In this document: in pieces, positions 6,893-22,307 of the stretch
How the letters are laid out: the number at the start of each line of letters is the position of its first letter
Position numbering within the stretch: position 1 is the first letter of the stretch
From: a virus
Lineage: Duplodnaviria; Heunggongvirae; Uroviricota; Caudoviricetes
DNA length: 22,392 bases
IMG/VR virus record: IMGVR_UViG_3300038829_000114
Direction: 5' to 3' (one strand)
Notes under the pieces: generated by a model
Database searches by the model: none
What the model was told of the DNA's origin: nothing
What the model saw: only the letters and a program-made list of their open reading frames with translations
Program-made: the position numbers and the translations under genes

Positions 6893-6968
6893 TGTTAGGC
6901 TCCTTTACGTTATGGTCTTAGTTTATCTTAATAGAGACGATAATGCAAGTGGTTATGGTATGGTGTCT

Positions 6969-7298: not shown

Positions 7299-7323
7299 GA
7301 CGTTTCCCTTTTCAAGTAAGAAT

Positions 7324-7352
7324 ATTATACCCTAGTTAAATCGCCCTGTCAA
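7324..7352 (-). promoter_or_regulatory. Consensus sigma70 promoter TTGACA-17-TATAAT
   Basis: tgtcaa 7347-7352; attata 7324-7329. Confidence 0.8.
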
Positions 7353-7754: not shown

Positions 7755-7831
7755 ATCTTAAACCCCTTTAAGTTATGAGTCCAGTTTACCAGTTAAGAGA
7801 CATAGAGACAACTGTGTGTGTTATGGTATCT

Positions 7832-8068
7832 CTATCCGAGGGCTTTACCAGACAGTGCAAAAATGTCTGTGTTATCATTAAACGGTTTCAATGAATACTT
7901 GTCTATGATCTTAAACGTATATTGAGGCTTGCCAGCAAACATAGAGACGATTTTTTGTTCGGCGCGGTGCAGGGTGTTTGCTTCAACGACAAAACCCCGT
8001 TCTGTGGCCATTTTTATTCCGTCCCCGTCTATGATAGCGTAGTGGACTTTAATCGTGTGTAAACCCAT
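7832..8068 (-). CDS. Hypothetical protein, 78 aa
   Basis: ORF track; 2-nt gap to upstream gene; stop within CCCTCGGA-TAGAGAT. Confidence 0.75.
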   Translation of the reverse strand: MGLHTIKVHYAIIDGDGIKMATERGFVVEANTLHRAEQKIVSMFAGKPQYTFKIIDKYSLKPFNDNTDIFALSGKALG

Positions 8069-8070
8069 TT

Positions 8071-8307
8071 TTAGCCCTTTGTGTAGTAGATGTAGTCAAG
8101 GCCAAGGTTATCGACAGCAAACCCCATATCAACAAGCCGTGAGCCTGTTTCTGTGTTGGGGCTTTTGTTGACTTTGAAAGCAACTGAGGCCATTTTGCCA
8201 TACATTCCCCGGCCTGAGTAGTCTCTGTATTCGCTGTAAATCGTGGAGTGTAATTCGTTTAGAACCTTGATTGCAGCGACTTTCATTTCGGTGTGTAGGT
8301 GGCTCAT
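8071..8307 (-). CDS. Hypothetical protein with YSGRGMYG motif (uncharacterised phage family)
   Basis: ORF track; AAAGGGG RBS; promoter TTGATT-17-TATAAT. Confidence 0.85.
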   Translation of the reverse strand: MSHLHTEMKVAAIKVLNELHSTIYSEYRDYSGRGMYGKMASVAFKVNKSPNTETGSRLVDMGFAVDNLGLDYIYYTKG

Positions 8308-8380
8308 GTGTTCCCCTTTACGTTATAGAGACATTATAGCTTAGTTAATAGAGACAATCAAGTGTGAGTTTAGAGTGTCT

Positions 8381-8524
8381 CTATTCGAGGTAGCGTTTCA
8401 TAGAGAATCGGCTAGGTTGCCACCAGTAACGCCAATAGCCACCCTTAAGATGAACCCAGCGGAATACCCATTGACCGATTTGCAATTCCCAGGCTGTTGG
8501 CCCTTTGCCGAATAAAAGAACCAT
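8381..8524 (-). CDS. Small Trp-rich protein, 47 aa
   Basis: In-frame ATG 8524 of track ORF 8381-8668, 1 nt after the upstream stop; stop TAG is in a TAGAGAC arm. Confidence 0.65.
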   Translation of the reverse strand: MVLLFGKGPTAWELQIGQWVFRWVHLKGGYWRYWWQPSRFSMKRYLE

Positions 8525-8525
8525 G

Positions 8526-8813
8526 TTAAAAATTCGGGTCTTGGTAGTAGTTTGCTTCACCGATATAGACAAAGCAGGAATCGGTGCGAAAGGCTTTGTG
8601 CTTTGCCGACAATCGGGCTGTAATGATCGGGCCGCTGGGGTCTTGCGCGAATGTATAAACCGCGTCACCAGATCGAAAATTGCCAGAAACGTGAACAGGC
8701 TTTAATTCGCGCAAGGTAAGGGTTTTTTTGCTGGCAGTCATTCCGATAACCTCATAGGGATAACGGTCTGAGCCGACTTGCTTGGTTGCGCGTGTTCCGA
8801 TTTGAATGTCCAT
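8526..8813 (-). CDS. Hypothetical protein with GSDRYPYEV motif (uncharacterised phage family)
   Basis: ORF track 8526-8843; ATG 8813 after GAGG; the upstream ATG lies inside the predicted -10. Confidence 0.85.
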   Translation of the reverse strand: MDIQIGTRATKQVGSDRYPYEVIGMTASKKTLTLRELKPVHVSGNFRSGDAVYTFAQDPSGPIITARLSAKHKAFRTDSCFVYIGEANYYQDPNF

Positions 8814-8898
8814 GATAACGCCTCGCTTTGTTATGACTGTCATAATAACTTAAGTTATAGAGACAATCAAATTTGGGTTTATGGTGTCTCTATAAGAG

Positions 8899-9186
8899 CT
8901 AGCTAAGAACGGTTGCGATTTGGTATGATTCGCCGTCGCTACTTACTTTAATAGCTACGCCGGAAAAAAAGCTGTCTGTGTGGATGCCATGATAACCCTT
9001 TGCGATAAGTTCAGGATGATTTGACCGTAGAAAATCGCTGATATGGTACCAATAACGGCGATAGTATATGAAACCGTCATGGCGTTCATCCTCGCTTAAG
9101 TGGTCGAATTGATCGGCCATAACGCTTTTCGGGACTTCATAGCCGTACTTAAAATGGCGCTGTTTGTTGTTTGTGATGATGTTCAT
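8899..9186 (-). CDS. Hypothetical protein (F.Y...Y...DF.R...DSFFSG motif)
   Basis: ORF track; AAAGGGG RBS; promoter TTGACA(9239-9244)-17-TATACT(9216-9221). Confidence 0.85.
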   Translation of the reverse strand: MNIITNNKQRHFKYGYEVPKSVMADQFDHLSEDERHDGFIYYRRYWYHISDFLRSNHPELIAKGYHGIHTDSFFSGVAIKVSSDGESYQIATVLS

Positions 9187-9294
9187 GGCCTTCCCCTTTG
9201 CGTTATGTTGGAATCAGTATAACTTAAGTTAAGAGGCTTGTCAAATGGGCTTGAGGGGTGGCGGTTTGACAATAAGTAATCACTATGCTACAAT

Positions 9295-9376
9295 ATCTTA
9301 TACCGTTGAGATAGTACGGGACGGGCGGGAAGGTCTAATCATATCAGGGCGTTATAGGACAGACTTCCACATGTAC
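9295..9376 (+). ncRNA. 82-bp inter-promoter element, copy 1 (candidate small RNA)
   Basis: ATCTTATACCGTTGAGATAG..GGACG..GGAAGGTCT-N24-AGACTTCCACATG between TTGACA-17-TACAAT (+) and TGTTATAAT (-). Confidence 0.6.
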
Positions 9377-9435
9377 ATTATAACATGAAAAAAATAGAGA
9401 CGCCACCACTGTTGGTATTGTCTCTATAAGAGGGG

Positions 9436-9576
9436 TTAGCGTTTGTTGTACGAAAATGACAACCAAACATGTCGGCGTTCGGTCTTGCACAGGCTTTGAT
9501 AGAGCTTGTGAGCTTTTTCAAAATGGGTATCTTCGTATTCCCCGACGACTTCGTTTTCAATCATTACATAAACCAT
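9436..9576 (-). CDS. Small protein, 46 aa (MVYVMIENEVVGEYEDTHFEKAHKLYQSLCKTERRHVWLSFSYNKR); not in ORF track
   Basis: Hand translation; AAGGAGG RBS; own module promoter at 9599-9628. Confidence 0.8.
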   Translation of the reverse strand: MVYVMIENEVVGEYEDTHFEKAHKLYQSLCKTERRHVWLSFSYNKR

Positions 9577-9656
9577 TGTTTCCTCCTTTAGTGTTAATAG
9601 TATAGCAGAACAGAGACACCCCCCGCAAGAGTGTTTTGGTGTTGTCTCTATAAGAG

Positions 9657-9887
9657 CTATTTAGGTGCTACAAATTCGATTGGCTCAGGATTCGATAGCG
9701 TAGCAGTCACTTTAACGATACGCCATGCACGTTCGGCGGCAATACGTTCAAATACTTGCCCGTTTGTCTGGTACCCTATGCGGGCCATACCGCCGCACAT
9801 TTTATTGACACATTCGATAGGCCGTTCGCTTAGCGTAAACATTTGGATACCTTCGGACGTTTCAACCGCGTATAAAATTGTTTTCAT
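9657..9887 (-). CDS. Hypothetical protein, 76 aa
   Basis: ORF track; AAAGGGG RBS; promoter TTGTGG-17-TAAACT. Confidence 0.8.
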   Translation of the reverse strand: MKTILYAVETSEGIQMFTLSERPIECVNKMCGGMARIGYQTNGQVFERIAAERAWRIVKVTATLSNPEPIEFVAPK

Positions 9888-9975
9888 AAGTCACCCCTTT
9901 AAGTTATGACGTTAGTTTAACAGAACAGAGACACCCCCACAAACTCAGTCATGGGAGTGTCTCTATTCGAGGGGT

Positions 9976-10440
9976 TTAAGCGGCTTGTGCGGCGGTCAGT
10001 GTTTCGGAGCCTGTAGCTTGTTCGATTGCCAATTCTTCGACAATGAGGCCGGTTGTAAGCACCTTGCCGGAACGCTTGGCTTTTGGCAGGTTTTGAAACA
10101 TGGCCGCTACTTGTTCCTCATACTTGTCCAGGTCGGCAAAATCCTTGAGCATCGTTTCACCTTGTTCGCCAAGAATGACAGCCAAGGCCATGGCGCGTTC
10201 GAGTAGCTTCAAGGCATGCGGAGCCGTGATACCAGAATAGCGGACAAACAACGCCAAAGCCGTTTTGATTGGCACATGGGCAGTCGGCGTATATTGTTCA
10301 TCGGCCTTGACTTCAAAATGGCCGGAAACGCGGACGGCAAGGTCTACCGTATGCTTGCCAACGGATTGCTGCTTACGCAATTCCTTTTGACGCGCATCTT
10401 TAACAATCTTGCTGAGCGCGAACTCTTGTACTGTGTTCAT
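9976..10440 (-). CDS. Hypothetical protein, 154 aa
   Basis: ORF track; AAGGGG RBS; promoter TTGACA(10514-10519)-17-TAGAAT(10491-10496). Confidence 0.85.
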   Translation of the reverse strand: MNTVQEFALSKIVKDARQKELRKQQSVGKHTVDLAVRVSGHFEVKADEQYTPTAHVPIKTALALFVRYSGITAPHALKLLERAMALAVILGEQGETMLKDFADLDKYEEQVAAMFQNLPKAKRSGKVLTTGLIVEELAIEQATGSETLTAAQAA

Positions 10441-10618
10441 TGTTTTACCCCTTTGGCCGTTTTTGGCCGGTTCGTTATCGTATGGAATCCATTCTATCGG
10501 ATTTGCAGGGATTTGTCAAACGAAACAAACATACCCCTTTAGGGGTATGTTAATAACTCGCATAGAGACACCATAAACTATTGTTGCAATGTCTCTAATT
10601 TGCTGGTAAACTGGTTTT

Positions 10619-10858
10619 ATGATTTTACGAAACCAACTTTGCCCGGATTGCGATTCAATGCTAAAAGTAGCAAACCATAACGCGGGACAAGTGTACGCGC
10701 ATTGTTCAAACAATTGCGGGTATTCTACTAAGCCGCGCAATACTCTTATTGACTTGAATGTACATGTTAATGACATTCGCGCCAAGCGTATCGGGCGGGC
10801 CGCTATGAAACTTGGTATTAAAACCGTGGCCGAACTCGAAACCTTGCTGAAAAAGTAG
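10619..10858 (+). CDS. Small zinc-ribbon protein (CPDC...CSNNC), probably leaderless
   Basis: ORF track; ATG is 6 nt after TTGCAA-17-TAAACT and has no RBS. Confidence 0.75.
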   Translation: MILRNQLCPDCDSMLKVANHNAGQVYAHCSNNCGYSTKPRNTLIDLNVHVNDIRAKRIGRAAMKLGIKTVAELETLLKK

Positions 10859-10889
10859 ATTTGACAGCTTGAAAATCCTATGATATAAT

Positions 10890-10970
10890 ATCTTATACGG
10901 TTGAGATAGAGCCGGACGAAAGAGGGGTCTGGTCTGATAGGGCATAGGATGGCTAGACTCCCACATGTAT
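10890..10970 (+). ncRNA. 81-bp inter-promoter element, copy 2
   Basis: Same scaffold as copy 1; flanked by TTGACA-17-TATAAT (10861-10889, +) and TTGACA-17-TAAAAT (10999-10971, -). Confidence 0.6.
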
Positions 10971-11098
10971 ATTTTACCATGTGATATGTTAGTTGTCAAA
11001 CTGGGATGATAATAGCTCTTATAGAGACTATGCTTGTTTGTGTTGCAGTGTCTCTATAACTATGTTAAACTGGTTTCATAACTTGAAGGGGAAAAACG

Positions 11099-11386
11099 AT
11101 GCAAACTTATCAAGCAAAATGGTATTCTGATCCTGGCCATGAGTGGTTACAGGTCGAAAAAAAGGATTGCGTAGCCCTTGGCATTACTGGCAAGGTAAGC
11201 GAGTGCAGCTATCACAAAGGCCAGCATGCCTACTTAGAGGGCGATTGTGATGCGCCTCTGTTTTATAATGCTGTGGAGGCTTTGGGCGGGGTTATCGACA
11301 TGGGCGTAGAAGTAAGCGCAAACGATGACAGTCCTGTGCGCGAAATGTCCCGGATTACCAGCCGCATGAACTGGAGCCAATCATGA
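11099..11386 (+). CDS. Hypothetical protein with SDPGH.WL...SY...YLEGDCDA motif (widespread uncharacterised phage/plasmid family)
   Basis: ORF track; AAGGGG RBS; promoter TTGCAG-17-TAAACT. Confidence 0.9.
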   Translation: MQTYQAKWYSDPGHEWLQVEKKDCVALGITGKVSECSYHKGQHAYLEGDCDAPLFYNAVEALGGVIDMGVEVSANDDSPVREMSRITSRMNWSQS

Positions 11387-11649
11387 TGAAACATGTACCA
11401 GACTCCATGACGTTCGTAACAGATGATTTTAAGGTTGTCAAGCGGGATGTTGCTAACATTGTTATTCACCCTGTCGGCCATAGCTGTCCCGCGATTCGCA
11501 AAGATTGGATGGCTGTCGAAATTACCAGCGTGACCGGCGAGAAATGGTATCGTGGGACGCAGAAGGCGTTTATTGATAGCCATTTGAAAGTCGCTATGGA
11601 AGTCCACCCTAACGATGAAATTTTAGCCAAGTGGCCGGATGCTAACTAG
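11383..11649 (+). CDS. Hypothetical protein, 88 aa
   Basis: ORF track; ATGA overlap. Confidence 0.75.
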   Translation: MMKHVPDSMTFVTDDFKVVKRDVANIVIHPVGHSCPAIRKDWMAVEITSVTGEKWYRGTQKAFIDSHLKVAMEVHPNDEILAKWPDAN

Positions 11650-11729
11650 ATCGAATAGAGACACCGACTAACTAGCGTTTGTGAGGGTAGTCTCTAACTG
11701 GTAAACTGATTGCAACATAAGGGGTTCAC

Positions 11730-12020
11730 ATGAAACGTATTGACATTCATGGTCGTCGCTGGTGGAACAAACGAACGGGAAGCACTTACCATAGCGTCAG
11801 TGTCGAAGTAGACGGCGTTGAAGTATTCAAAATTCCCTTTGCTTATGGGTACGATCAGCAATACTTGACCAATGCAATGAACGAACTCCAGCGCCGGGGG
11901 CTTGTGAGCCGTATACAGTATCAAGGGGGTTCATGGGAAGCGCCATGGGTTTATGCCAAGCGCGTCGGTGTCGAACTCAATTATGGCGCTATGGACGTAA
12001 ACCGTAAAAAAGACCTCTAA
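11730..12020 (+). CDS. Hypothetical protein (RRW...G.TYHS...PFAYGY.QQY motif)
   Basis: ORF track; AAGGGG RBS; stop TAA directly followed by TAGAGAC. Confidence 0.85.
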   Translation: MKRIDIHGRRWWNKRTGSTYHSVSVEVDGVEVFKIPFAYGYDQQYLTNAMNELQRRGLVSRIQYQGGSWEAPWVYAKRVGVELNYGAMDVNRKKDL

Positions 12021-12093
12021 TAGAGACACCGACTAAGGCTATTTGCTTAGAGTCTCTATAACTGATAAACTATTCTTACTTAAAGGGGTTCAC

Positions 12094-12288
12094 ATGAAAT
12101 CATACATTGTTGGCTTAGAGAACAACGAAAAATCGCAGGATGTTATCGAAGCTGATAACATGATGGACGCGGCGGATATGTGGCTAGAATCGCATCCTGA
12201 CGCCTCTGGCCGGGTTATCGTTGAGAATGAGACTGGCGACAAAGCAGGCTATAATGTTAGCACCGTGGCAACTGCTGAGTTAGTATGA
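12094..12288 (+). CDS. Small acidic protein, 64 aa
   Basis: In-frame ATG of track ORF 12043-12288, after AAAGGGG. Confidence 0.75.
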   Translation: MKSYIVGLENNEKSQDVIEADNMMDAADMWLESHPDASGRVIVENETGDKAGYNVSTVATAELV

Positions 12289-12503
12289 ACATCGAACAGG
12301 CCAGAAAACTAAAACGCGGCAATGTTGTTACTCTAGGCCCGTTTGCGGAGGGCCACGGCTTGACAAGACACCAAACAGTTACGGTAGCCAACAACGTCCA
12401 CCAAAGTGGGGCGACATACCAATTACCGAATGGAACGCTTTACATATGGGTTTCAGTTAGGGCCACGCATGAAATCGTCGTGGCCTCTCACCAACTGAGC
12501 TAG
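12285..12503 (+). CDS. Hypothetical protein, 72 aa
   Basis: ORF track; ATGA overlap. Confidence 0.7.
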   Translation: MNIEQARKLKRGNVVTLGPFAEGHGLTRHQTVTVANNVHQSGATYQLPNGTLYIWVSVRATHEIVVASHQLS

Positions 12504-12507
12504 TCTA

Positions 12508-12690
12508 ATGGTCAAAACAAAAGAACAGTGGGCCGCAATCAAAGCAAAATACCGTCCTTTAGTGATGGAAATTTGCCATGATGTTGCTACCCGTATCAAC
12601 AAAGATGCGCCACAAATCGAAGATGACGGGCCTTACAAGTGTCAAATGGCGCTAGAACTCGTTATCGAAGAATTACAAAACCGGGTCTAG
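12508..12690 (+). CDS. Hypothetical protein, 60 aa
   Basis: ORF track; followed by a module. Confidence 0.7.
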   Translation: MVKTKEQWAAIKAKYRPLVMEICHDVATRINKDAPQIEDDGPYKCQMALELVIEELQNRV

Positions 12691-12747
12691 CTCTAATAGA
12701 GACTTCAAAAGCTGTGACTTGCGGAGTCTCTATTAAAATGTTAAACT

Positions 12748-12836
12748 ATACATGCGGAAGTCTGTAGTGGAGTAGTCTCTAAAGGACGGACCACTCCCTT
12801 TGCTTCTCTGTTGCCGTTCGTTCATCGTATAAATAC
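12748..12836 (-). ncRNA. Diverged, inverted fifth copy of the inter-promoter element (89 bp)
   Basis: Minus strand starts GTATTTATACG and ends AGACTTCCGCATGTAT; internal stem GGAGTGGTC/GACTACTCC; flanked by TTGCGG-17-TAAACT (+) and TTGCGA-17-TATACT (-). Confidence 0.4.
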
Positions 12837-12979
12837 AGTATAACCTAAAATCAGCATGTTCGCAAATAGAGATGCTTAGTCCCTCTAAAAGAGCTATCAT
12901 AGTTTGTGCGGTTGTGATTGTCCTTTAACTTAGTTATAATGATGTCATAAGATAACAAACCAACGAAAGGGGTTTCACA

Positions 12980-13900
12980 ATGGCAAAAGAAAAAGGCAAG
13001 TCTGTTTACGAAATCGTTTCGGAACAGATTATCAACATGATTGAAACATCGGGCGAATTACCTTGGCAAAGGCCATGGGTTGCGGGGGAATCGACGCCAA
13101 AAAATTTGAAGTCGAAGAAAGAGTATAACGGCTTTAACGTGTTTTACCTGTCTTGGGTGGCACAAGCTAAAAATTGGGGGCCGTACTGGTTGACTTGGAA
13201 GCAATGCGAGGCTTTTGGCGGCAAGGTAAAGGACGGCGAATCGAAAAACTATACAATCGTGACATTTTGGAAGTTTTTTGACAATCGAACGTCTGAACAA
13301 GTTGAAGCAGGCGCGAACGGCAAAAGCATACCAATGTTGCGCTACTATAGGGTTTACAATGCCGATCAATGCGACGGACTGAAGCTGCCAGCAAAAGCGC
13401 CCATGCCTAACGTGGTATCGCCGGTCGAAGCTGCGGACGCAATCGTCAAGGGCTACATTTTGGGGCCGTCCATTGTCCACGGCAACGGCGGACGCGCAAG
13501 CTATTCGCCATTGCTTGACACTGTGAACATGCCAGCCGTTGAATCGTTTACGTCGGTGTCTGGTTACTACGGTGTTTTGTTTCACGAATTGGTACATTCA
13601 ACAGGCCATGAAAAGCGGTTAAAGCGTGACATTGCTAACACATATGGCACTGAACCGTATGGCCGCGAAGAATTGATCGCTGAACTAGGGGCCGCTATGC
13701 TATGTGCAAAGGCCGGAATTGCCCCAAATATCGACAATTCAGTTGGCTACCTGCAAAGCTGGCTCAAAGCAATCAAAAGCGACCCAAAGGCAATTGTGAC
13801 GGCGACAGGTAAGGCCGACAAAGCTGCCAAGTATATCGCGGGCGAAACAAAGGCCGAAAGCCTAGACAGCGACGAAAGCGAACAGGCCGAAGCTGCCTAA
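12980..13900 (+). CDS. ardC: ArdC-family anti-restriction / ssDNA-binding protein with zincin-like C-terminal domain
   Basis: LPWQRPW, YNGFN, WLTWKQ...GGKVK.GE, LRYYRVYNADQ (ArdC N-domain); YY..LFHELVHSTGH...YGREELIAELGAA (HExxH zincin-like fold). Confidence 0.9.
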   Translation: MAKEKGKSVYEIVSEQIINMIETSGELPWQRPWVAGESTPKNLKSKKEYNGFNVFYLSWVAQAKNWGPYWLTWKQCEAFGGKVKDGESKNYTIVTFWKFFDNRTSEQVEAGANGKSIPMLRYYRVYNADQCDGLKLPAKAPMPNVVSPVEAADAIVKGYILGPSIVHGNGGRASYSPLLDTVNMPAVESFTSVSGYYGVLFHELVHSTGHEKRLKRDIANTYGTEPYGREELIAELGAAMLCAKAGIAPNIDNSVGYLQSWLKAIKSDPKAIVTATGKADKAAKYIAGETKAESLDSDESEQAEAA

Positions 13901-13984
13901 CTCTAATAGAGACACCTTAGTCGGTAACTTGGCTAGGGTGTCTCTAGTTTGGTAGAATAGACTTATAACGTAAAGGGGTTTACG

Positions 13985-14287
13985 ATGAAAGTTATCCAAG
14001 ACATGACAGTGTTAAAAGCAATGCAGCGCCGGGGCTTGATTCGATTCCACGAGGATACGGGCAAGCTGGTTGGCCAATTGTTTAGCAATCGTAAGGCAAA
14101 AGCCTATTACATTGACGGCGGACCTCGGACGGTGTTTGACTATGATGATTCCCGCTACCAGATCAAATATTTTGATGGTTGCTTTTGTCCTTTTGTTGTC
14201 GAAATCGGGCCGCGTTTGATGACTGAAGAGGAAAAAATTGTTTGGGGAATACCTTTGGAAAGGGTGTGTTATGTCAATGTCAACTAA
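13985..14287 (+). CDS. Hypothetical protein (KYFDGCFCPFV motif)
   Basis: ORF track; ATAACGTAAAGGGG leader. Confidence 0.85.
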   Translation: MKVIQDMTVLKAMQRRGLIRFHEDTGKLVGQLFSNRKAKAYYIDGGPRTVFDYDDSRYQIKYFDGCFCPFVVEIGPRLMTEEEKIVWGIPLERVCYVNVN

Positions 14288-14603
14288 ATTTGAAGTAGAC
14301 ATGACGGTTGCTGTGTTTGACCGATCTGGAATACGGGCAAGGCGCGTCATTGTCTCTATCAGCCCGAAACGTGGTGATATTAAACTGAACGATGAATCAA
14401 AATATGATTCGCGGGGTTATTCTGGCTCAACATGGGAGCATTGGCACATTGAGCCTTGGACAGATACCCATGCGGTTGAACTAAAACGCCGTATCAATTT
14501 GCAAACGCTCAAGGGTATCCACTGGGAAACGCTGAGCGCCGATAAGATTCAAGCGGTTTTGGATGTGTTGAAAGCTGAGCCAGAACCTAAACCCATCGAA
14601 TAG
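14271..14603 (+). CDS. Hypothetical protein, ~110 aa
   Basis: In-frame ATG of track ORF 14238-14603 after GGAAAGGG; stop TAG is in a TAGAGAC arm. Confidence 0.75.
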   Translation: MSMSTKFEVDMTVAVFDRSGIRARRVIVSISPKRGDIKLNDESKYDSRGYSGSTWEHWHIEPWTDTHAVELKRRINLQTLKGIHWETLSADKIQAVLDVLKAEPEPKPIE

Positions 14604-14675
14604 AGACACTGTAGTAAGACACTGGCTAACATAGTCTCTATCTGATAAACTGTATTCAAGTAAAGGGGAATTGAT

Positions 14676-14969
14676 ATGGAAACATGCTATGATCGAAATT
14701 ATAAATGCTGTGAACAACTAACACCGCTAGAACATTTTCAGAAACACGGTTATTACTCTAGCAACGAAATAGGACCAAACATGTCAAAACCAAAATGTCA
14801 ACTGCTCGGCCAAGACTCCAACGTGTTTAACTTGGTTGGGATTGCTTCTCAAACCCTGAAACGTGCGGGACAGCCGGATAACGCTAAGGCAATGACTGAC
14901 CGCGTATTTGCTTCAGGTAGCTTTGATGAAGCATTAGGCATCATCATGGAATATGTGGACGTAGAATGA
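14676..14969 (+). CDS. Hypothetical protein; C-terminal KPKCQLLGQDSNVFNL...SGSFDEAL.II.EYV domain (widespread uncharacterised family); second start possible at 14781
   Basis: ORF track; AAAGGGG before 14676 and AGGA before 14781. Confidence 0.85.
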   Translation: METCYDRNYKCCEQLTPLEHFQKHGYYSSNEIGPNMSKPKCQLLGQDSNVFNLVGIASQTLKRAGQPDNAKAMTDRVFASGSFDEALGIIMEYVDVE

Positions 14970-15199
14970 AAACTTACGAACTACCTTATGGCCTTGTGAT
15001 CGAAACCCAAAACAACGGTGTCGGGACCGTCAAAGAATCTTGTAAGCAAGGCGGCGAAAACCCTGAGCTTAACGCGGCTTTAGACGGTGTTGAGGCAATT
15101 ATGTTAGCTTTGGCTTGTGCTGGGGTTGATATTGATAACGAGCCTGTTCATAATGCCTTTGTGACTGCTGTAGATGCCATTGAAAACAACTTAGGTTAA
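14966..15199 (+). CDS. Hypothetical protein, 77 aa
   Basis: ORF track; ATGA overlap. Confidence 0.8.
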   Translation: MKTYELPYGLVIETQNNGVGTVKESCKQGGENPELNAALDGVEAIMLALACAGVDIDNEPVHNAFVTAVDAIENNLG

Positions 15200-15204
15200 T
15201 AACA

Positions 15205-15282
15205 CTCTAGCGCCCCTTATCCGATTCCCACGCTAGAGACTACTTGGAAAGAATCGGATGGTGCCCGGTTGGGGATAGCCCC
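15205..15282 (+). other. Candidate H-type pseudoknot plus small hairpin in intergenic DNA
   Basis: CTCTAGCG 15205-15212 / CGCTAGAG 15231-15238; loop ATCCGATTC 15219-15227 / GAATCGGAT 15251-15259; GGGG-ATAG-CCCC 15271-15282. Confidence 0.5.
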
Positions 15283-15287
15283 TCTAA

Positions 15288-15332
15288 TAGAGACATTACC
15301 TTCCCCCTTTTTGGTAGTGTCTCTATTTTTTT
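15288..15332 (+). terminator. Module hairpin with T7 tract (intrinsic-terminator-like)
   Basis: 13-bp stem TAGAGACATTACC/GGTAGTGTCTCTA followed by TTTTTTT; equivalent on minus strand at 9388-9426. Confidence 0.6.
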
Positions 15333-15340
15333 GTTATAAT

Positions 15341-15422
15341 GTATTCATACGGTTGAGATAGAACCGGACGGAAAGGGGAGTCTGTTCTTATGCTATGAAT
15401 AGAGACTCTACTACCCCATTAT
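15341..15422 (+). ncRNA. 82-bp inter-promoter element, copy 3
   Basis: GTATTCATACGGTTGAGATAGAACCGGACG..GGGGAGTCT-N19-AGACTC; flanked by TGTTATAAT (+) and TTGACA-17-TATTAT (15451-15423, -). Confidence 0.55.
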
Positions 15423-15554
15423 ATAATACCATTTAGGTTCATGCTTGTCAAACGTGGAGTCAATCTATATCGGATAGAGATACTAACCCTAGTTATATAG
15501 CGGGGGTGTAGTCTCTATGATAGAATGGATTCATAACTTGAAAAGGGGAATCAC

Positions 15555-15932
15555 ATGTTCAAAGTATCAGTAAAGTCAAAGCGTCAAAGCCGTTTGTTGC
15601 CTGGGGGTGTCCCTCGCTGGATTCGTTGCTATGATAACGGGGGGACAGATGCAGGCGGCTCAATTGACCGTTACACCGTGATTTATACGGGCCGATGGAA
15701 AGGCCGGGAACGTGGCACTGATTACTATGTGGCTATGAATGCTGCACCGTTTCACCCGCAAGGTTTTGGGCAACACGGTGAAATAAGTTTTAGCCAGTTG
15801 GGGGACGGTCAGACTGCAATGGACCGGCCTAAGTATTCACACCTTGGTAAGAAAATTACATTTAAGTATTTGCCTACCGATTGTCAAAAGCTGGTTCTAA
15901 GCGATTACAAGGATATTTGGGGCCTCGAATAG
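15555..15932 (+). CDS. Hypothetical protein (YDNGG...DRYTV motif family)
   Basis: ORF track; AAGGGG RBS; stop TAG is in a TAGAGAT arm. Confidence 0.85.
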   Translation: MFKVSVKSKRQSRLLPGGVPRWIRCYDNGGTDAGGSIDRYTVIYTGRWKGRERGTDYYVAMNAAPFHPQGFGQHGEISFSQLGDGQTAMDRPKYSHLGKKITFKYLPTDCQKLVLSDYKDIWGLE

Positions 15933-16003
15933 AGATACCTTAGATATTGTGTTGAGTTGTAGTCTCTATTTTGGTAAACTGATTTTAAGTAAAGGGGAAT
16001 CAC

Positions 16004-16216
16004 ATGAGCGCACAAAAAATGTTTGGTTGCAGTACGGAAATGCTGGACCTTACAATATCGAACAATTTCCGGTCGCATGACGTTAAAATGCTTTTGACAG
16101 GCATTTTGAGCGAATCGCAAGAGGCTATGGCGCGGGGCAATCTGGAAACAGCGCGGCAACAGATCAACCAAGTCAAGTACCTTATCGACAAACTTGAAGT
16201 CAAGCGGGGGAACTAA
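16004..16216 (+). CDS. Hypothetical helical protein, 70 aa
   Basis: ORF track; AAAGGGG RBS; promoter TTGAGT-17-TAAACT. Confidence 0.8.
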   Translation: MSAQKMFGCSTEMLDLTISNNFRSHDVKMLLTGILSESQEAMARGNLETARQQINQVKYLIDKLEVKRGN

Positions 16217-16218
16217 TC

Positions 16219-16794
16219 ATGAGTGTTGGAAGTGCAATGCTTGAAGCTGAAAACCCCTACAAAAACCAAGTTATTCAGGCAACATGGGGCCACCTTGCGC
16301 CGACAAAGCATGTAACCTATCGTGGGTTTTTTACATTCGGCGTAGGTTGTTTTGAAAGCGGTTCCGTTCGCGTGTTGGCGTTTGAGTTTGGCGATTTGGA
16401 TAGCTCACCCTGGATGTACCAAAAGCTCCATGATTTTATCTTTCGCCACAAAGAAAGTTTTGGGGAACGTGGCTGCGTTTATCAATTCGTCGGGACTATC
16501 CGCAATTATTCGTTTTGTGGTAAGATCACAAAGGTTTTTGATGCAAACGTACCTGTCCAGCCGGTGCCTAAACCAAAGCCAAAAAAGCCGGTTGCTATCC
16601 CGCCACCGTCTGACAATATCGAATGGATTAAGGCCGTGGAAGCTGTCAAAGCGGGCGCTGGGTATATTCTCGAAACAACTACGATGTTTCACTATGTAAA
16701 CCCCAAAGGTAAACACGCGGTTTGTTACTGGGGTAGCTTAGACGCAAAAGAAGCTCAAACGACGTTGCGGACGTTAGCAACACAGGCTAACTAA
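16219..16794 (+). CDS. Two-domain hypothetical protein (TWGHLAP...DSSPWMY domain, Pro/Lys linker, C-terminal domain)
   Basis: ORF track; PVQPVPKPKPKKP linker; stop followed by TAGAGAC. Confidence 0.85.
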   Translation: MSVGSAMLEAENPYKNQVIQATWGHLAPTKHVTYRGFFTFGVGCFESGSVRVLAFEFGDLDSSPWMYQKLHDFIFRHKESFGERGCVYQFVGTIRNYSFCGKITKVFDANVPVQPVPKPKPKKPVAIPPPSDNIEWIKAVEAVKAGAGYILETTTMFHYVNPKGKHAVCYWGSLDAKEAQTTLRTLATQAN

Positions 16795-16873
16795 TAGAGA
16801 CACCATAGCTAAGACACTGGCTATTAGTTGGCGTCTAGGGTATAATAAACTCATAACGTAAAAGGGAATTAAC

Positions 16874-17221
16874 ATGAATGTTTTCGACAAACTTAATGCA
16901 GATGTTTACAAAAACACAGACCCGTATCCTGTCAAGCGAGAGGTAAAGCCAAAAGAGTTGCCGGGGTACAAGATTGACAAAGAAACACACCCCGATTTTA
17001 TGGCGGCAAAGGAAGAGTATCGGGAAGCTCAAAAAGTATGGCAGCGGCGCGAATATGAATTACAAGATCAGTTTAAGCGTGATTTGCTTGAGCATCTTGG
17101 TATTACAGGCCACCCCAAAGCCGATTTGCTTTATTCCTATGCATGGTCTCGTGGTCACTCCAGCGGCCTGCATGAAGTGGCTAACTGTGCGCTTGATCTT
17201 GTCGAACTGATTAAGGACTAA
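16874..17221 (+). CDS. Hypothetical protein (AW.RGHSSG..EV motif family)
   Basis: ORF track; AAAGGG RBS; promoter TGGCTA-17-TATAAT. Confidence 0.9.
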   Translation: MNVFDKLNADVYKNTDPYPVKREVKPKELPGYKIDKETHPDFMAAKEEYREAQKVWQRREYELQDQFKRDLLEHLGITGHPKADLLYSYAWSRGHSSGLHEVANCALDLVELIKD

Positions 17222-17400
17222 ACTATAAAAATACGCGCTGAATGACTATCAGCTAGTTGGTCTGAACCACCAATGAAGAAAGAGTATCGTTGCTCTAAAA
17301 AAGGTTTTCTAGGCTTGAATCGGCCCGTTATGGTAGCGACGTAACTAAGTAGCTGGAGGGGAAACCCTGAGAAGGCGGGCTTAGGCTACCACGATTTTTA
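17222..17400 (+). ncRNA. Candidate structured RNA in a 180-bp non-coding gap
   Basis: TGGTAGC 17331-17337 / GCTACCA 17385-17391; CTAAG/CTTAG; AGGG-GAAA-CCCT GNRA hairpin 17357-17368. Confidence 0.45.
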
Positions 17401-17485
17401 ACCCATCACATAGAGACACTATACATTAGTCAGTGGCTAAGGTGTCTCTATTCTGATAAACTGTTTTGAACGTAAAGGGGAATTT

Positions 17486-17716
17486 ATGAGCCATCCAGAC
17501 GACGAGCATTATGTTTACGGAACGGCTACAATCAAACGAAACTGGTTGATCCCTAACTCGTGGCACGTAGGCGGGCAAAAGGATAATCCATACCCGTACA
17601 TTTGTGAAACACTATCCGATGCGTCACGGATGGCACAAACCGTAGATCATTACAACAAGACAAACGAAATTAAAAAATTTGGTACCGACCTTAGCATTTT
17701 AACTCGAACGGTTTAA
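17486..17716 (+). CDS. Hypothetical protein, 76 aa
   Basis: ORF track; AAAGGGG RBS; promoter TGGCTA-17-TAAACT. Confidence 0.8.
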   Translation: MSHPDDEHYVYGTATIKRNWLIPNSWHVGGQKDNPYPYICETLSDASRMAQTVDHYNKTNEIKKFGTDLSILTRTV

Positions 17717-17800
17717 CAACTCTTTTAGAGACACTACCACATTAGACATTGACTGATGTGTCTAAGTAGGATAAACTGATTTTAAGTAAAGGGAAACAAA

Positions 17801-18004
17801 ATGCGAAAATCATACCGTGGTGAATACTGGGTTATTGTCAGTCACGATTCAGTAGGTGAAAAAATCTATTGGAGTAATCGTTGGGGCTGGACTGGTCTTG
17901 GTGAAGCCGATTGCTATAAAACGTACCAAAAACGTCTCTATGCGTTGCCTATGAATAGCGCACCCGTTAAGTGGGAAAACTTGCGGAGACAAAAGACATC
18001 TTGA
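17801..18004 (+). CDS. Hypothetical protein (YWSNRWGW motif), 67 aa
   Basis: ORF track; AAAGGG RBS; promoter TTGACT-17-TAAACT. Confidence 0.8.
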   Translation: MRKSYRGEYWVIVSHDSVGEKIYWSNRWGWTGLGEADCYKTYQKRLYALPMNSAPVKWENLRRQKTS

Positions 18005-18005
18005 T

Positions 18006-18034
18006 TTGACTTTAAGCTAAGTTAGTGGTAGAAT
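18006..18034 (+). promoter_or_regulatory. Sigma70 promoter TTGACT-17-TAGAAT (no TAGAGAC pair)
   Basis: Read directly from sequence. Confidence 0.7.
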
Positions 18035-18060
18035 ATATTTAAGTGAAAAGGAGTTACACA

Positions 18061-18393
18061 ATGGCCAATGAATCAATCCAATTTAATTTAGTCGAAGCAT
18101 TACGCCGGTTCGAGTGCTTTGGTGTTGCTGAAGGGCGTGTAACTTGGTGCATTGATGATTTGGTTAATCTCAAGTGGACTGTGCTTGCCTATGCTTCAGA
18201 GATGAGAAAGACAACCGCGCAAGGCTATATGGTTGTTGCCGGGCACTATGAAAAGCGTTGTCTTGGTTGGTATCAACTGACAGAGAAAGGCGCTAAGATC
18301 GTACTCAAGTGGCATGAAATGGGTGTTCACTGCTTTGATTACAATGTTGTTGGTACTCCCCCATTTTACAAAGATATTGAAAAACAACTCTAA
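18061..18393 (+). CDS. Hypothetical protein, possible winged-helix wing (WYQLTEKG)
   Basis: In-frame ATG of track ORF 18043-18393 after AAAGGAG; stop followed by TAGAGAC. Confidence 0.8.
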   Translation: MANESIQFNLVEALRRFECFGVAEGRVTWCIDDLVNLKWTVLAYASEMRKTTAQGYMVVAGHYEKRCLGWYQLTEKGAKIVLKWHEMGVHCFDYNVVGTPPFYKDIEKQL

Positions 18394-18471
18394 TAGAGAC
18401 ACCATAAACTAGCAATTGATTTAGTAGTCTCTATGGTGTAGAATAGATTCATAACGTGAAAGGAACACAAA

Positions 18472-18693
18472 ATGATTTTTCGTGATTATCTTGAAAAACT
18501 AAATGCCTTTGCGGAAAGTAACCCAAAGGTTCTCGATTTGCCTATTGTTGCTGAATTCCATTCGGATGAGGGTAATGCAGCTTATAAAGAGTTACAACAT
18601 GAACCCGTTGTTGCCGGATGGGATGGCCTAGACTGCTATACAATGCATGGCCAGGATGCTGATGCCCGCATGTGCGTTTTTATCAACCACTAA
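18472..18693 (+). CDS. Hypothetical protein, 73 aa
   Basis: ORF track; AAAGGA RBS; promoter TTGATT-17-TAGAAT. Confidence 0.8.
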   Translation: MIFRDYLEKLNAFAESNPKVLDLPIVAEFHSDEGNAAYKELQHEPVVAGWDGLDCYTMHGQDADARMCVFINH

Positions 18694-18703
18694 GGAACAA
18701 CAA

Positions 18704-18946
18704 ATGCTCAACGATTTTAACGACCCGTCAAGCGACTCTTGGATTTTCCGTAATTTCGGTAGAATCTCTACAGTCATGATTGTTATAGGTCTTTTAGCTG
18801 CTGTTATTCAAATTGGAGCAATTGTTTTCATTGCCGCTAAAACGGTTGACGCTGTTTCTGAAGAATGTACTGGTAAAGACGCGGCAAGTTGCGCGGGTGG
18901 GATTGCAGGAAAATTCAAAAAAGCATTTAACGAAGAGGCGAACTAA
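18704..18946 (+). CDS. Single-pass membrane protein, ~80 aa
   Basis: In-frame ATG of track ORF 18647-18946 after AAGGA; hydrophobic VMIVIGLLAAVIQIGAIVFIA. Confidence 0.8.
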   Translation: MLNDFNDPSSDSWIFRNFGRISTVMIVIGLLAAVIQIGAIVFIAAKTVDAVSEECTGKDAASCAGGIAGKFKKAFNEEAN

Positions 18947-18947
18947 C

Positions 18948-19121
18948 ATGGCTAAAACTTACAAAGATTTGCTCAAGTGGCTGGTTGCTATGCCGGATGC
19001 CCGACTTGAGGACACGGCTACAATCCAATTTGATGACGAATACTTTGCTGTAGACGATTTTGGAGTCTGTGATGACGGGGTGCTTGATGATGGCCATTTG
19101 TTTATGGTTGTCGGTGAATAG
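18948..19121 (+). CDS. Small acidic protein, 57 aa (MAKTYKDLL...DEYF...VLDDGH)
   Basis: In-frame ATG of track ORF 18813-19121 after GAGG. Confidence 0.8.
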   Translation: MAKTYKDLLKWLVAMPDARLEDTATIQFDDEYFAVDDFGVCDDGVLDDGHLFMVVGE

Positions 19122-19203
19122 CATCTAATAGAGACACCTTTAATCTCAGTTTGTGGAGTCTCTATAAATTTGTTAAACTGGTTTCAACGTAAAGGGGAAT
19201 TAC

Positions 19204-19395
19204 ATGAACAAATTAGCAGTTACACAGTTGCTCGAAGGTGTTGCCAACGAATTGCTTGGTATTGATGCCGACGATTTGACCACGGCTGAAAAAAACATTG
19301 TGCGGCGTCTCTATAACTTTCGGAAAGAAGAAAAGCTACCCGAACGTGAAGAACTTACGCGCCTTTATAACGAAGTCTCCAAGGGGCCACGATAA
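19204..19395 (+). CDS. Hypothetical protein, 63 aa
   Basis: ORF track; AAAGGGG RBS; promoter TTGTGG-17-TAAACT. Confidence 0.8.
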   Translation: MNKLAVTQLLEGVANELLGIDADDLTTAEKNIVRRLYNFRKEEKLPEREELTRLYNEVSKGPR

Positions 19396-19694
19396 TGCGC
19401 GGGCAAAAGTTTTTCAAAATATTTTTCGAGGAAAAGCAACTACCGGACGAACACTGGGAACTGGTTGCTGAAGATGGTACGCCTAACTATATCGGTACGG
19501 ATGTGGTTATCGAACACCTTACGATGGACGGGGCTGCTAATTACTTTGGTCCAGATGTTTACCGTAAGATTGAGGACACCATTCGGATGATTGACTTTAA
19601 GAATGGCAACGTAAACCATTATTTACACTTTTTGGCGTGTGGCTTGGCCGGGGCTAACCCTGAGCTACCTGAAAATAAATATCGCAAGGAATAG
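19395..19694 (+). CDS. Hypothetical protein (FFEEK...IDFKNGNV.HYL.FLA motif family)
   Basis: ORF track; TAATG overlap. Confidence 0.85.
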   Translation: MRGQKFFKIFFEEKQLPDEHWELVAEDGTPNYIGTDVVIEHLTMDGAANYFGPDVYRKIEDTIRMIDFKNGNVNHYLHFLACGLAGANPELPENKYRKE

Positions 19695-19806
19695 GCTTAT
19701 AAGCGTTCACAGCGGTATACCTCGGATAGAGATACCTTAACCCGTTACTTGTTTTCGTCCCTAAAAATAGGTATAATTAGGGACAAGATGAAAGGAGCAA
19801 AAAAAC

Positions 19807-19860
19807 ATGAGTCCATACACAATTTGGCCGGATGATTGGGATATTGGTGGGGAATCGTGA
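19807..19860 (+). CDS. 17-aa mini-ORF (MSPYTIWPDDWDIGGES) coupled to the next gene
   Basis: AAAGGAG RBS; TGA overlaps GTG at 19857. Confidence 0.4.
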   Translation: MSPYTIWPDDWDIGGES

Positions 19861-20156
19861 ACCAACTTACCTTAGACCAAAAGATCACGTTCAAAGGTGA
19901 GTTAGCCCGCTTTGGATATATTCATGATTTTCCCCGGTTGAACATGGAACACCTTGTTTTCCTTTGGTATCGGGTACGTGGTATCTCTATCACACAATTT
20001 CTCAAAGGCCGTAAATTCGTTTATCGGCCACGTTATGAGGAAATACTAGAGGCCCGTGCTAACAAACAAAAACGGGACTTAGGGGAGCGCTTAATCAAAG
20101 GGTTGTCGCAAGTGGGCCGGATTGGTTATAATTTCCACACAGCAACACACGTTTGA
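19857..20156 (+). CDS. Hypothetical basic protein, ~99 aa
   Basis: In-frame GTG of track ORF 19836-20156 after GGGGA. Confidence 0.7.
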   Translation: MNQLTLDQKITFKGELARFGYIHDFPRLNMEHLVFLWYRVRGISITQFLKGRKFVYRPRYEEILEARANKQKRDLGERLIKGLSQVGRIGYNFHTATHV

Positions 20157-20165
20157 AGGCACATC

Positions 20166-20336
20166 ATGAGTAGCTTAAAAGATCGCTGCAAGCACTGTAA
20201 AAGAGAACGTGGAAAGCATAAGGCTACCACGCATCATTGCCCTGTAGGAATGAAAACACGTATTGGATACCTTCAATTTCATCCTACACAGGTGTTTGAG
20301 TTAGGCAAAGAGTACAAAAACACTATTACTCTCTGA
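20166..20336 (+). CDS. Small Cys/His protein, 56 aa (CKHC...H...HCP); not in ORF track
   Basis: Hand translation MSSLKDRCKHCKRERGKHKATTHHCPVGMKTRIGYLQFHPTQVFELGKEYKNTITL; GAAGG RBS. Confidence 0.75.
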   Translation: MSSLKDRCKHCKRERGKHKATTHHCPVGMKTRIGYLQFHPTQVFELGKEYKNTITL

Positions 20337-20366
20337 TTTGACAATAGAGATAACCCCTGGTATAAT

Positions 20367-20448
20367 ATCTTATACGGTTGAGAAACTACCGGACGAGAGG
20401 GAAGGTCTGTTATTGGCTATAGTGGCGCGATTAGACTCCCACATGATC
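20367..20448 (+). ncRNA. 82-bp inter-promoter element, copy 4
   Basis: ATCTTATACGGTTGAGAAA..CCGGACG..GGGAAGGTCT-N24-AGACTCCCACATG; flanked by TTGACA-17-TATAAT (20338-20366, +) and TGATATACT (-). Confidence 0.6.
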
Positions 20449-20723
20449 AGTATATCACGTATCGCGCCATTTATCGCGCCACTTTGTCGTGATACCTCTA
20501 AAAGAGATAGTAAACCCAGGTGAGTCCATCAACCTTCCGCTTACTCACTAAGCACGAGCATGCTTTGTTGAAAGGTCGGGCTGGATTTACAAAACCATTA
20601 TGCCATAGAGACAACATTATTGCAAATAGGTTATAAAGTGTCTCTATCAGATATACTAAGGGAATTGGGTTGTGGTGTCTCTATGATGGTGTTATTATGA
20701 AGCGTAACGTAAAGGGGAATAAA

Positions 20724-20852
20724 ATGAAACCGACAGTAAAAGCGCGGAATTGGGGGAATGTAACCCTACAGTTTAAGTCTGGACGTGGTGTACACAAGGA
20801 CAAGTCTATGTACACGCGGAAAGTTAAACATAAGGGCAAAATTGACAAGTAG
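20724..20852 (+). CDS. Small basic protein, 42 aa (…HKDKSMYTRKVKHK…)
   Basis: In-frame ATG of track ORF 20670-20852 after TAACGTAAAGGGG. Confidence 0.8.
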   Translation: MKPTVKARNWGNVTLQFKSGRGVHKDKSMYTRKVKHKGKIDK

Positions 20853-20904
20853 TGTTGGTTCTGGTAAACTTATTACAACTGAAAACTTTTGAAATGGAGC
20901 TAAC

Positions 20905-21540
20905 ATGAAATTCAATATCAACAGCGGAAAAATTGTGGTGTCCGACCCGTGCTATGAAAATGGTGTAGAGTGTCGCCATCTTATCGAAAATGCTTTGGTT
21001 GGCGTGTGGGTTGCTGAAGTACGTCTCTCTGATGAAGGTTCATGGGGCCAACGTGTTTCCGAACTGGTTATCCGCCATGAAAGCTGTAAACTGACTGTTG
21101 AACCGTACAGTCTCGAATCGTCCGACATTGGTGTTGACTCTGGACAAGCTGGTTTCTTTGATGCCGATGCCTACCGTAAGGATGAACTCATTATCAAAAC
21201 GCCTGAATTTGATTTAGGCGATCATGGAAAAGGTGATGGGGATAAATGGTATAGTGCTTGCTGTGACCTTACCCTAAGCAATGAACGGGCCGGGGTGGTT
21301 GCTGAAACGGGTGTGGTCTCGTCCAGTGGCTTTGGCGATGGTTGTTATCAGTTGTTTGTTTCGACTAACACTGATGGTAAAGTGATTGCCGCAAAGATCG
21401 TTTTTATCGGGCCGGAAGAAGAAGAAGAAGAGGACGAATGCTGGGGCTGTAACAATCCCGAATCCGAATGTACCTGCTGCCAAGAATGTGGTAAGGGCGA
21501 TTGTGACGGGGAATGTCAAAACGAGCCGGAAGAGGACTAA
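20905..21540 (+). CDS. DUF4241-like protein with acidic, Cys-rich tail
   Basis: SGKIVVSDPCY, IGVDSGQAGFFD and SSGFGDGCY motifs; tail E7D-CWGC...CTCCQECGKGDCDGEC. Confidence 0.8.
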   Translation: MKFNINSGKIVVSDPCYENGVECRHLIENALVGVWVAEVRLSDEGSWGQRVSELVIRHESCKLTVEPYSLESSDIGVDSGQAGFFDADAYRKDELIIKTPEFDLGDHGKGDGDKWYSACCDLTLSNERAGVVAETGVVSSSGFGDGCYQLFVSTNTDGKVIAAKIVFIGPEEEEEEDECWGCNNPESECTCCQECGKGDCDGECQNEPEED

Positions 21541-21622
21541 ATCTTTTAGAGACACTATAGACAGTGACTTGAGGTGTCTCTAGTTGTTTGGTAAAATGGT
21601 TGATAAGTGAAAGGGAAACAAC

Positions 21623-21850
21623 GTGAAAGATTATCTCTATTATGTTATTGTTGCTTGTACAGGGACTCCAAAGCAGGTTTGGGCAGCTAGTCCGTTTCAA
21701 GCCGCGCTAAAAGCTCATTCGGAGTATGTCCACTCAGCATTAGTAAACGGCCATTTTTACGATTATGAATGTGCCATACAGGTTTCCGATGACTACGATG
21801 GTAAAGTAAATCTACAAGCGTTTCAATTCTCTTACCCTAAGAAGGTGTAA
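21623..21850 (+). CDS. Hypothetical protein, 75 aa
   Basis: ORF track; AAAGGGA RBS; promoter TTGAGG-17-TAAAAT. Confidence 0.75.
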   Translation: MKDYLYYVIVACTGTPKQVWAASPFQAALKAHSEYVHSALVNGHFYDYECAIQVSDDYDGKVNLQAFQFSYPKKV

Positions 21851-21851
21851 C

Positions 21852-22271: not shown

Positions 22272-22307
22272 TCTGGTAAAATAGTCTCTAAGGATAAAGG
22301 AACTTAT

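Follow-up and report, generated by a model that had tools for sequence, protein, structure and literature searches.

A repeated, gene-less cassette between facing promoter-like sites in the early region of an uncultured phage

Large lytic phages carry many small genes of unknown function in their early regions, and outside a few model phages the timing of these genes is poorly understood. What might be the role of a non-coding sequence that recurs among such genes, each time held between two promoter-like sites that point at one another? The question is raised by the IMG/VR virus record IMGVR_UViG_3300038829_000114, a stretch of 22,392 nucleotides (called the window throughout, at its full length) that was recovered from a groundwater metagenome and covers a section of an uncultured phage's early region. 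An earlier note on this DNA had described four copies of an 81- to 82-bp element. Judged by sequence comparison, the element is a conserved non-coding family, multi-copy and gene-less, and each copy may be a control cassette for early transcription that acts in cis through sense and antisense RNA.

The core motif of the element occurs exactly four times in the window, always on the plus strand (at 9300, 10895, 15347 and 20372), and none of 100 shuffled sequences gave a match. All four copies placed there by the earlier note (copies 1–4, or c1–c4; Table 1) were confirmed; a degenerate inverted copy (c6) and the copies outside the window had been missed. The proposal that promoters face each other at both edges also held: the sites are of sigma-70 type, and all eight carry a TGn extended -10. 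Five of them (+9266, +10861, +20338, -10999 and -15451) are among the eight best sigma-70 matches, at 11 or 12 of 12, in a scan of 16.4 kb; the -35 box is weak in the left promoter of c3 and in the right promoters of c1 and c4. When recomputed, the gaps between the two -10 boxes were identical to those first given (82, 81, 82 and 82 bp for c1–c4) and had been held despite the diverged interior. A search of both strands of the whole window for convergent TGnTAnnnT pairs with a gap of 78–90 bp returned these four alone. Comparison of the frames of the window copies found no open reading frame (ORF) common to them, in line with the earlier claim that no conserved ORF lies inside.

The -10 box of the left promoter (P_L) ends 7–8 nt ahead of the motif ACGG, and a hairpin of 4–5 bp (P2; CGGU...ACCG) begins at nucleotide 3 of the predicted transcript; all transcription starts used here are predicted positions. 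There follow a purine tract, which matches the phage's own Shine-Dalgarno consensus AAAGG(G/A)G (39 of 74 genes are preceded by it), a variable middle of about 25–35 nt and a pyrimidine tract, which can pair with the purine tract as helix P3 and is followed by CAT (CAA in rD, a copy in a related phage). The right promoter (P_R) is on the opposite strand, with its -10 box 3–7 nt past CAT, and the predicted start sites of P_L and P_R are about 70 or 74 bp apart.

A covariance model was built from the four window copies and used to scan the window, its sister contigs (European Nucleotide Archive project PRJEB10139; the largest contig with the same proteins is 107.5 kb) and contigs of related phages. 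Downstream DNA was reached by walking along the sister contigs, and related phages were reached through homologues of two neighbouring proteins, a GP88-like protein (64–73% identity) and a protein of 125 amino acids (63–66%). The earlier note had suggested such a model as a check, and it recovered more copies. Three belong to the same genome and lie past the downstream end of the window: c5 at a distance of about 4.5 kb (43 bits), c7 at about 15 kb (35 bits; contig L069, 5306–5391) and c8 at about 19 kb (20 bits; L069, 9300–9385). Six more are found in related uncultured phages: rA and rB (contig L189), rC (L192), rE and rF (L195) and rD (L196). Thirteen intact members and a degenerate one were thus recovered, from this phage and at least three relatives from other samples, with at least eight copies in an early region of about 32 kb in this phage. 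The degenerate copy, c6, matched the model at 12744–12840 on the minus strand (15 bits) and was read by eye as a copy; its own promoter faces the module promoter that drives a gene for an ArdC-like protein, and L194 keeps part of this region ahead of its ArdC homologue. The long leader of this ArdC-like gene runs antisense across c6.

Wider searches added nothing to the family. No copy was present in L191 and L193, two more distant contigs that carry GP88, and when the region and individual copies were compared by BLAST with about 50,000 phage records, no real DNA-level resemblance to cultured phages emerged. Pattern scans of IMG/VR gave no matches or lone chance matches in coding DNA, and a protein-guided scan gave none. 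A first pattern had no matches in the JGI metagenomes; a looser one had more than 100, which were unrelated, lay mostly in coding contexts and had no promoter upstream. The single match in prokaryote genomes was a chance one within a high-GC Pseudonocardia gene.

The TGn extended -10 and a 17- to 18-nt spacer are present in 26 of the 26 promoters of the 13 intact copies (rB was read by eye), and the -10 to -10 gaps fall into two subfamilies, one of 82, 81, 82, 82, 82, 82, 80 and 82 bp and the other of 86, 86, 86, 85 and 87 bp. Several copies are positional orthologues (c1/rD, c3/rF, c4/rE, c7/rA/rC and c8/rB): the proteins encoded beside them are 30–73% identical, while many of the genes in between have been replaced by unrelated ones. 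One example of gene gain or loss adjoining the element is seen in L195 (285–1392), where three extra genes stand between rF and the homologue of the 125-amino-acid protein gene, compared with window positions 15452–15554. Between orthologues, identity is 73–93% over the first 30 nt, 53–100% over the last 14 nt and 45–74% in the interior, which is near random in the 82-bp subfamily; both promoters and the first 30–40 or so transcribed bases are conserved. The copies c3 and c5 contain an identical internal word, TAGAGACTC, about 10 nt off in register, and both are still 82 bp. A gap that stays constant while the interior diverges argues for selection on length, and on this comparison the promoter spacing appears to be under selection, with the caveat that indels are not reliably countable in alignments of saturated sequence.

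Structure was counted in a model-fitted alignment of the 13 distinct copies, all of which pair P2. The P2 stems include two U-G pairs and a single GC-to-CG double change, in c1, and the outer P3 helix has changes on both sides at five of five pairs. In rD, the P3 stem is rebuilt from unrelated sequence (ATGCGA/TCGCAT in place of the GTCT/AGAC found elsewhere), and in rF the P2 stem is kept while the loop sequence has changed. Overall, 80.3% of the cells pair, compared with 38–47% when the partners are slid, and the covariation score of 0.326 (0.229 in shuffles) was reached in none of 500 shuffles. When 10 copies were folded from the predicted start, P2 was in the minimum-energy fold of eight. 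Two hairpins, in the sense RNA, the antisense RNA or both, are therefore reasonably supported.

Eight intact copies in this phage and its relatives are oriented with the flanking genes, and in seven of nine gene-co-oriented copies the predicted P_L start lies 203–216 nt before the next start codon, with a hairpin-promoter module in between. Such modules, a TAGAGAC...GTCTCTA hairpin with a promoter-like site, stand at nearly all gene junctions from about 6.9 to 22 kb of the window. They have the form TAGAGAC-N(12-30)-GTCTCTA (window 6930–22290), and the loop and 3' arm overlap the promoter-like site, whose -10 is often TAAACT. These hairpins look like the true counterparts, in this phage, of PeSLs (promoter-early stem-loops), the small composite terminator/promoter sequences of T4-type phages (Arbiol et al. 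2010, PMC2839356; Comeau et al. 2014, PMC4122927). The window holds 23 of these stems (24 pattern matches, two of which are one nested stem), and only two of the 23 have a 7-T run in terminator configuration: 9396–9425, which adjoins c1 on the right, and 15289–15324, which adjoins c3 on the left. The earlier statement that c1 and c3 adjoin the sole two T7-bearing module hairpins was correct.

The terminator is fused to the promoter that is directed toward the genes, which is P_R in c1 and P_L in c3 and rF. Copy c1 and its orthologue rD are oriented against the leftward gene block, and in both a leftward promoter stands back-to-back with P_L. Use of the cassette in either orientation argues for a function of the promoter pair and not of the leader alone. 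The retention of a facing pair in the degenerate c6, in a region partly conserved in a relative, likewise leans toward the pair as the essential part.

The module-arm word TAGAGAC also occurs in the variable interior of many copies (window 15400–15406; L063, 15012–15018; L069, 9347–9353; and in L192, L195 and L196). The corresponding interior word of rD is TAGAGAT, GTCT follows the purine tract in copies of the element, and the P2 loop of c7 (GAGATAC) resembles the module-arm variant TAGAGATAC. Words common to the copies and the module hairpins hint at a shared binding factor or common ancestry.

In the interpretation that we favour, tentatively, each copy is a gene-less cassette that would control early transcription in cis by sense and antisense transcription. 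P_L would be a strong host-type promoter whose transcript opens with the P2 hairpin, followed by a Shine-Dalgarno mimic without an ORF, the architecture of an mRNA stabiliser. P_R, equally strong and at a fixed distance, would fire back across the same sequence. The two polymerases would interfere, by dislodgement of a bound polymerase or by collision, and the antisense RNA, a perfect complement of the leader, would by pairing hide the stabilising 5' end or lead to its removal, as RNase III might do. How much transcription leaves the cassette in each direction, and how long the RNAs last, would depend on how P_L and P_R are balanced. Firing of both promoters, interference between them, the RNA duplex and the stabiliser role are what we infer from the arrangement of these sites. 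Complementary small RNAs of about 70 nt had been suggested in the earlier note. The conserved facing promoters and the two covarying hairpins fit that suggestion, but no terminator bounds an RNA of about 70 nt, and separate small RNAs would have to arise through processing or through the collision of polymerases.

A stronger version, which we consider speculative, is that the cassette works as a protein-free transcription gate of fixed geometry, in which a promoter, when it fires, clears the one opposite, and each RNA neutralises the 5' end of its partner. If this is true, the early region would be partitioned by the eight or more copies into units, each with its direction and lifetime under local control; the spacing would itself be a target of selection, and the early programme of a lytic phage would have an organisation that has not been described. 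Should the sense/antisense mechanism hold, it would represent a compact means of two-way transcription gating without a phage-encoded protein, of use in understanding how phage programmes work and as a part for synthetic biology.

Several observations weigh against the sense/antisense interpretation. Promoter activity is predicted from sequence; a look for sequencing runs that contain this sequence returned the source DNA runs and no RNA run. The fold energies are ordinary (z-scores of +0.8 to -1.9), and RNAalifold on structure-blind MAFFT alignments of 10 copies found no consensus fold on either strand; MAFFT displaces the 3' arm of P2 between the subfamilies. The pair counts come from an alignment fitted to the structure and from related sequences, which favours structure. 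Pairing on the minus strand (76%) is about equal to that on the plus strand (80%), and counts of G-U versus A-C gave no strand preference. The Shine-Dalgarno mimic is itself paired in P3, a poor fit with ribosome binding. Because c1 and rD face against the neighbouring genes, their leader cannot serve a downstream gene, and stabilisation cannot be the whole story. Finally, the core is conserved in sequence beyond what pairing needs, and this would also fit a protein-binding site.

Alternatively, the element could, with rather low probability, be a DNA-level device in which the 40 bp or so past P_L bind a phage or host protein, or in which the polymerase pair forms a two-way roadblock or insulator that keeps adjacent early transcription units apart, with the RNAs as by-products. 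Within each subfamily, the P2 loop and the purine tract are nearly invariant, a conservation of sequence and not of pairing alone. The use of either orientation relative to the genes (c1 and rD compared with the rest) would suit such a device, as would the fusion of two copies to the sole two intrinsic terminators, which is expected at unit boundaries, and the presence in the interior of GTCT and TAGAGAC, the arms of module hairpins that bracket other promoters. The earlier note had proposed a DNA device in which geometry matters, and the constant inter-promoter spacing despite a diverging interior agrees with that much of it; its replication-origin version found no support. The GC-to-CG swap in P2 and the rebuilt P3 of rD, however, are changes of a kind typically seen in folded single strands, not in protein sites, and the same side is taken by rF, with its changed P2 loop on a preserved stem. 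The core has no evident repeated half-sites, and no candidate binding protein is linked to the copies.

Less probable still is that the copies produce trans-acting small RNAs: sense RNAs (with the Shine-Dalgarno mimic and C-rich motifs), antisense RNAs or both, abundant early and directed at other messages or at ribosomes. Many copies stand behind near-consensus promoters, the antisense strand carries the exact complement of the AAAGGGG-type ribosome-binding sites of many phage genes, and c1 and rD have no downstream gene to serve. Non-coding RNAs that are derived from 5' untranslated regions or are antisense are common in lytic phages (PMC10914365). Yet there is no terminator or defined 3' end within about 100 nt on either strand and no conserved seed in the variable middle, and fixed promoter spacing is unnecessary for action in trans.

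We think it improbable that the copies are simply PeSL-like intergenic cassettes, kept as promoters and as recombination points for gene shuffling, their leader and facing promoter doing nothing more. The elements and the other intergenic cassettes are the main DNA-level matches between relatives, while the intervening genes are replaced, and c1 and c3 are composite terminator-promoter units in the sense of the available PeSL descriptions (PMC4122927, PMC2839356). This explanation leaves unaccounted for the 30–40 conserved transcribed bases, the universal facing promoter, the fixed spacing and the covarying helices. An RNA-primed replication origin, or an R-loop site formed by a G-rich transcript past a strong promoter, is very improbable: the non-template strand is purine- and G-rich directly after P_L, and T4 and ColE1 origins use promoter-derived RNA, but the copies number at least eight within about 32 kb of early region, have no AT-rich unwinding element, iterons or composition dip, show no link to replication genes, and are all distant from the single large GC-skew shift of the window, near 6 kb.

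Known classes of element were also considered. The earlier note did not recognise a described RNA family and would have been overturned by a match to one or by a transposon end; both were looked for and neither was found. Rfam (release 15) gave no matches in the whole window at the gathering threshold, and at E<=10 there were five scattered weak matches between 9000 and 21000, none on a copy; ARAGORN found no transfer RNA or transfer-messenger RNA genes. The terminal symmetry that might suggest a transposon end or a miniature inverted-repeat transposable element consists only of the two -35 boxes (TTTGACA), there are no flanking direct repeats, and no transposase is found among the neighbouring genes. 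A type I toxin-antitoxin system was rejected, as the mini-ORFs of the copies, on either strand, range from 2 to 86 codons and agree in neither frame nor sequence. A coding role was rejected for either strand: on the sense strand, a start codon follows the Shine-Dalgarno mimic in some copies only, and on the minus strand a leaderless ATG would give peptides of 2 to 86 codons in differing frames.

Table 1. Predicted features of the element copies in the window and of the sites that adjoin them
Feature	Position	Strand	Description
Leftward promoter, back-to-back with copy 1 P_L	9216..9244	-	TTGACA, 17-nt spacer, TATACT; same layout beside the L196 orthologue
Copy 1 P_L	9266..9294	+	TTGACA, 17-nt spacer, TACAAT, with TG
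Copy 1 interior, 82 bp	9295..9376	+	5' hairpin P2, purine tract, variable middle, pyrimidine tract, CAT; 97.8 bits
Copy 1 P_R	9377..9405	-	TGtTATAAT extended -10, weak -35; co-directional with adjoining leftward genes
Hairpin + T7 intrinsic terminator, leftward transcripts	9388..9426	-	Fused to copy 1 P_R spacer
Copy 2 P_L	10861..10889	+	12/12 consensus, with TG
Copy 2 interior, 81 bp	10890..10970	+	90.6 bits
Copy 2 P_R	10971..10999	-	TTGACA, 17-nt spacer, TAAAAT, with TG
Module hairpin and its promoter	12697..12747	+	-10 TAAACT at 12742-12747; provides the promoter that faces c6
Degenerate inverted copy c6, 89-bp interior	12748..12836	-	P2 lost; purine tract and GTC/TAGAGAC words retained
c6 P_L-type promoter	12837..12865	-	TTGCGA, 17-nt spacer, TATACT; directed against ArdC gene
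Hairpin + T7 intrinsic terminator, rightward transcripts	15288..15332	+	Fused to copy 3 P_L; kept in orthologue rF (L195)
Copy 3 P_L	15311..15340	+	TTGGTA, 18-nt spacer, TATAAT, with TG
Copy 3 interior, 82 bp	15341..15422	+	87.3 bits
Copy 3 P_R	15423..15451	-	TTGACA, 17-nt spacer, TATTAT, with TG
Copy 4 P_L	20338..20366	+	12/12 consensus, with TG
Copy 4 interior, 82 bp	20367..20448	+	93.4 bits
Copy 4 P_R	20449..20477	-	TGaTATACT extended -10, weak -35

The early region around the copies is rich in small ORFan genes and includes the ArdC-like antirestriction gene and a gene for an HNH endonuclease. The ArdC-like gene (12980–13900) encodes an antirestriction/zincin metallopeptidase protein with PF08401 and PF18818, whose closest relatives are 72% identical, followed by others below 50%. 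No gene family is linked to the copies: flanking proteins are unrelated. The genes directly upstream of c2 (10619–10858) and c4 (20166–20336) encode small Cys-rich, zinc-ribbon-like proteins; since the genes upstream of other copies are unrelated, no link of the element to such proteins is supported. In the gene annotated at 20697–20852, a typical leader and an AAAGGGG ribosome-binding site come only after the ATG at 20697; the true start is probably the ATG at 20721, which would give a very basic protein of 43 amino acids. Positions 1–6000 of the window are unlike the remainder, with a GC content of 37% (about 44% elsewhere), strongly negative GC skew, genes that are all leftward and a different junction motif, GTCTCTATTATAACA; the HNH endonuclease gene (1586–2530, minus strand) lies within this part.

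No description of a repeated convergent-promoter cassette was found in the searchable literature, and the element was compared with known systems part by part. So far as the available accounts describe them, PeSLs are conserved cassettes, short and intergenic, that carry early promoters of host type and in some cases a fused stem-loop terminator (PMC2839356, PMC4122927); they recur across a hyperplastic early region rich in small ORFan genes and persist in relatives while genes are swapped. The element resembles them in these respects: its positional orthologues are retained with differing genes between them, and c1 and c3 combine a T7 hairpin with a promoter, while the other copies have no terminator. 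What it has beyond PeSLs as described is a second promoter that faces the first at a fixed spacing, a transcribed core that is conserved, and covarying hairpins. The element is a unit additional to the PeSL-like module hairpins. The antitermination sites lambda nut and HK022 put are like it in position only, as a hairpin right after an early promoter.

The 5' end of the predicted P_L transcript recalls the 5' mRNA stabilisers, which are 5'-terminal stem-loops and ORF-less Shine-Dalgarno elements such as the aprE leader and cryIIIA STAB-SD (PMC3997798). Like them, the element has a hairpin 2–3 nt from the predicted 5' end, a ribosome-binding-site mimic with no conserved start codon and long early transcripts downstream. 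It differs in that the Shine-Dalgarno mimic is predicted to be paired, that c1 and rD have no downstream gene and that stabilisers have no facing promoter.

Its promoter pair belongs with another group of systems. Face-to-face or cis-antisense pairs are known in P22 (Pant/sar RNA), IS10 (pIN/pOUT) and ColE1 (RNA I/RNA II). Interference between face-to-face phage promoters is established for coliphage 186 pR/pL and lambda PR/PRE (PMC5001618). As in such switches, the facing promoter-like sites of the element are less than about 100 bp apart, are conserved in relatives, and would give transcripts that overlap at their 5' ends and carry stem-loops on complementary RNAs; in the known systems, interference and antisense pairing are established mechanisms. 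Each of those switches exists in one copy, next to the gene under its control (for a regulator, for replication or for a transposase), and its two promoters usually differ in strength, one being strong and the other weak, whereas the element has at least eight copies per genome, no associated gene family, two promoters near consensus and either orientation. It now constitutes a defined RNA/DNA family that can be searched for in metatranscriptomes of uncultured phages. Set beside these systems, the element is a new combination of known parts that packs three known control principles, namely facing promoters, proposed antisense pairing and a stabiliser-like leader, into a conserved unit of about 140 bp.

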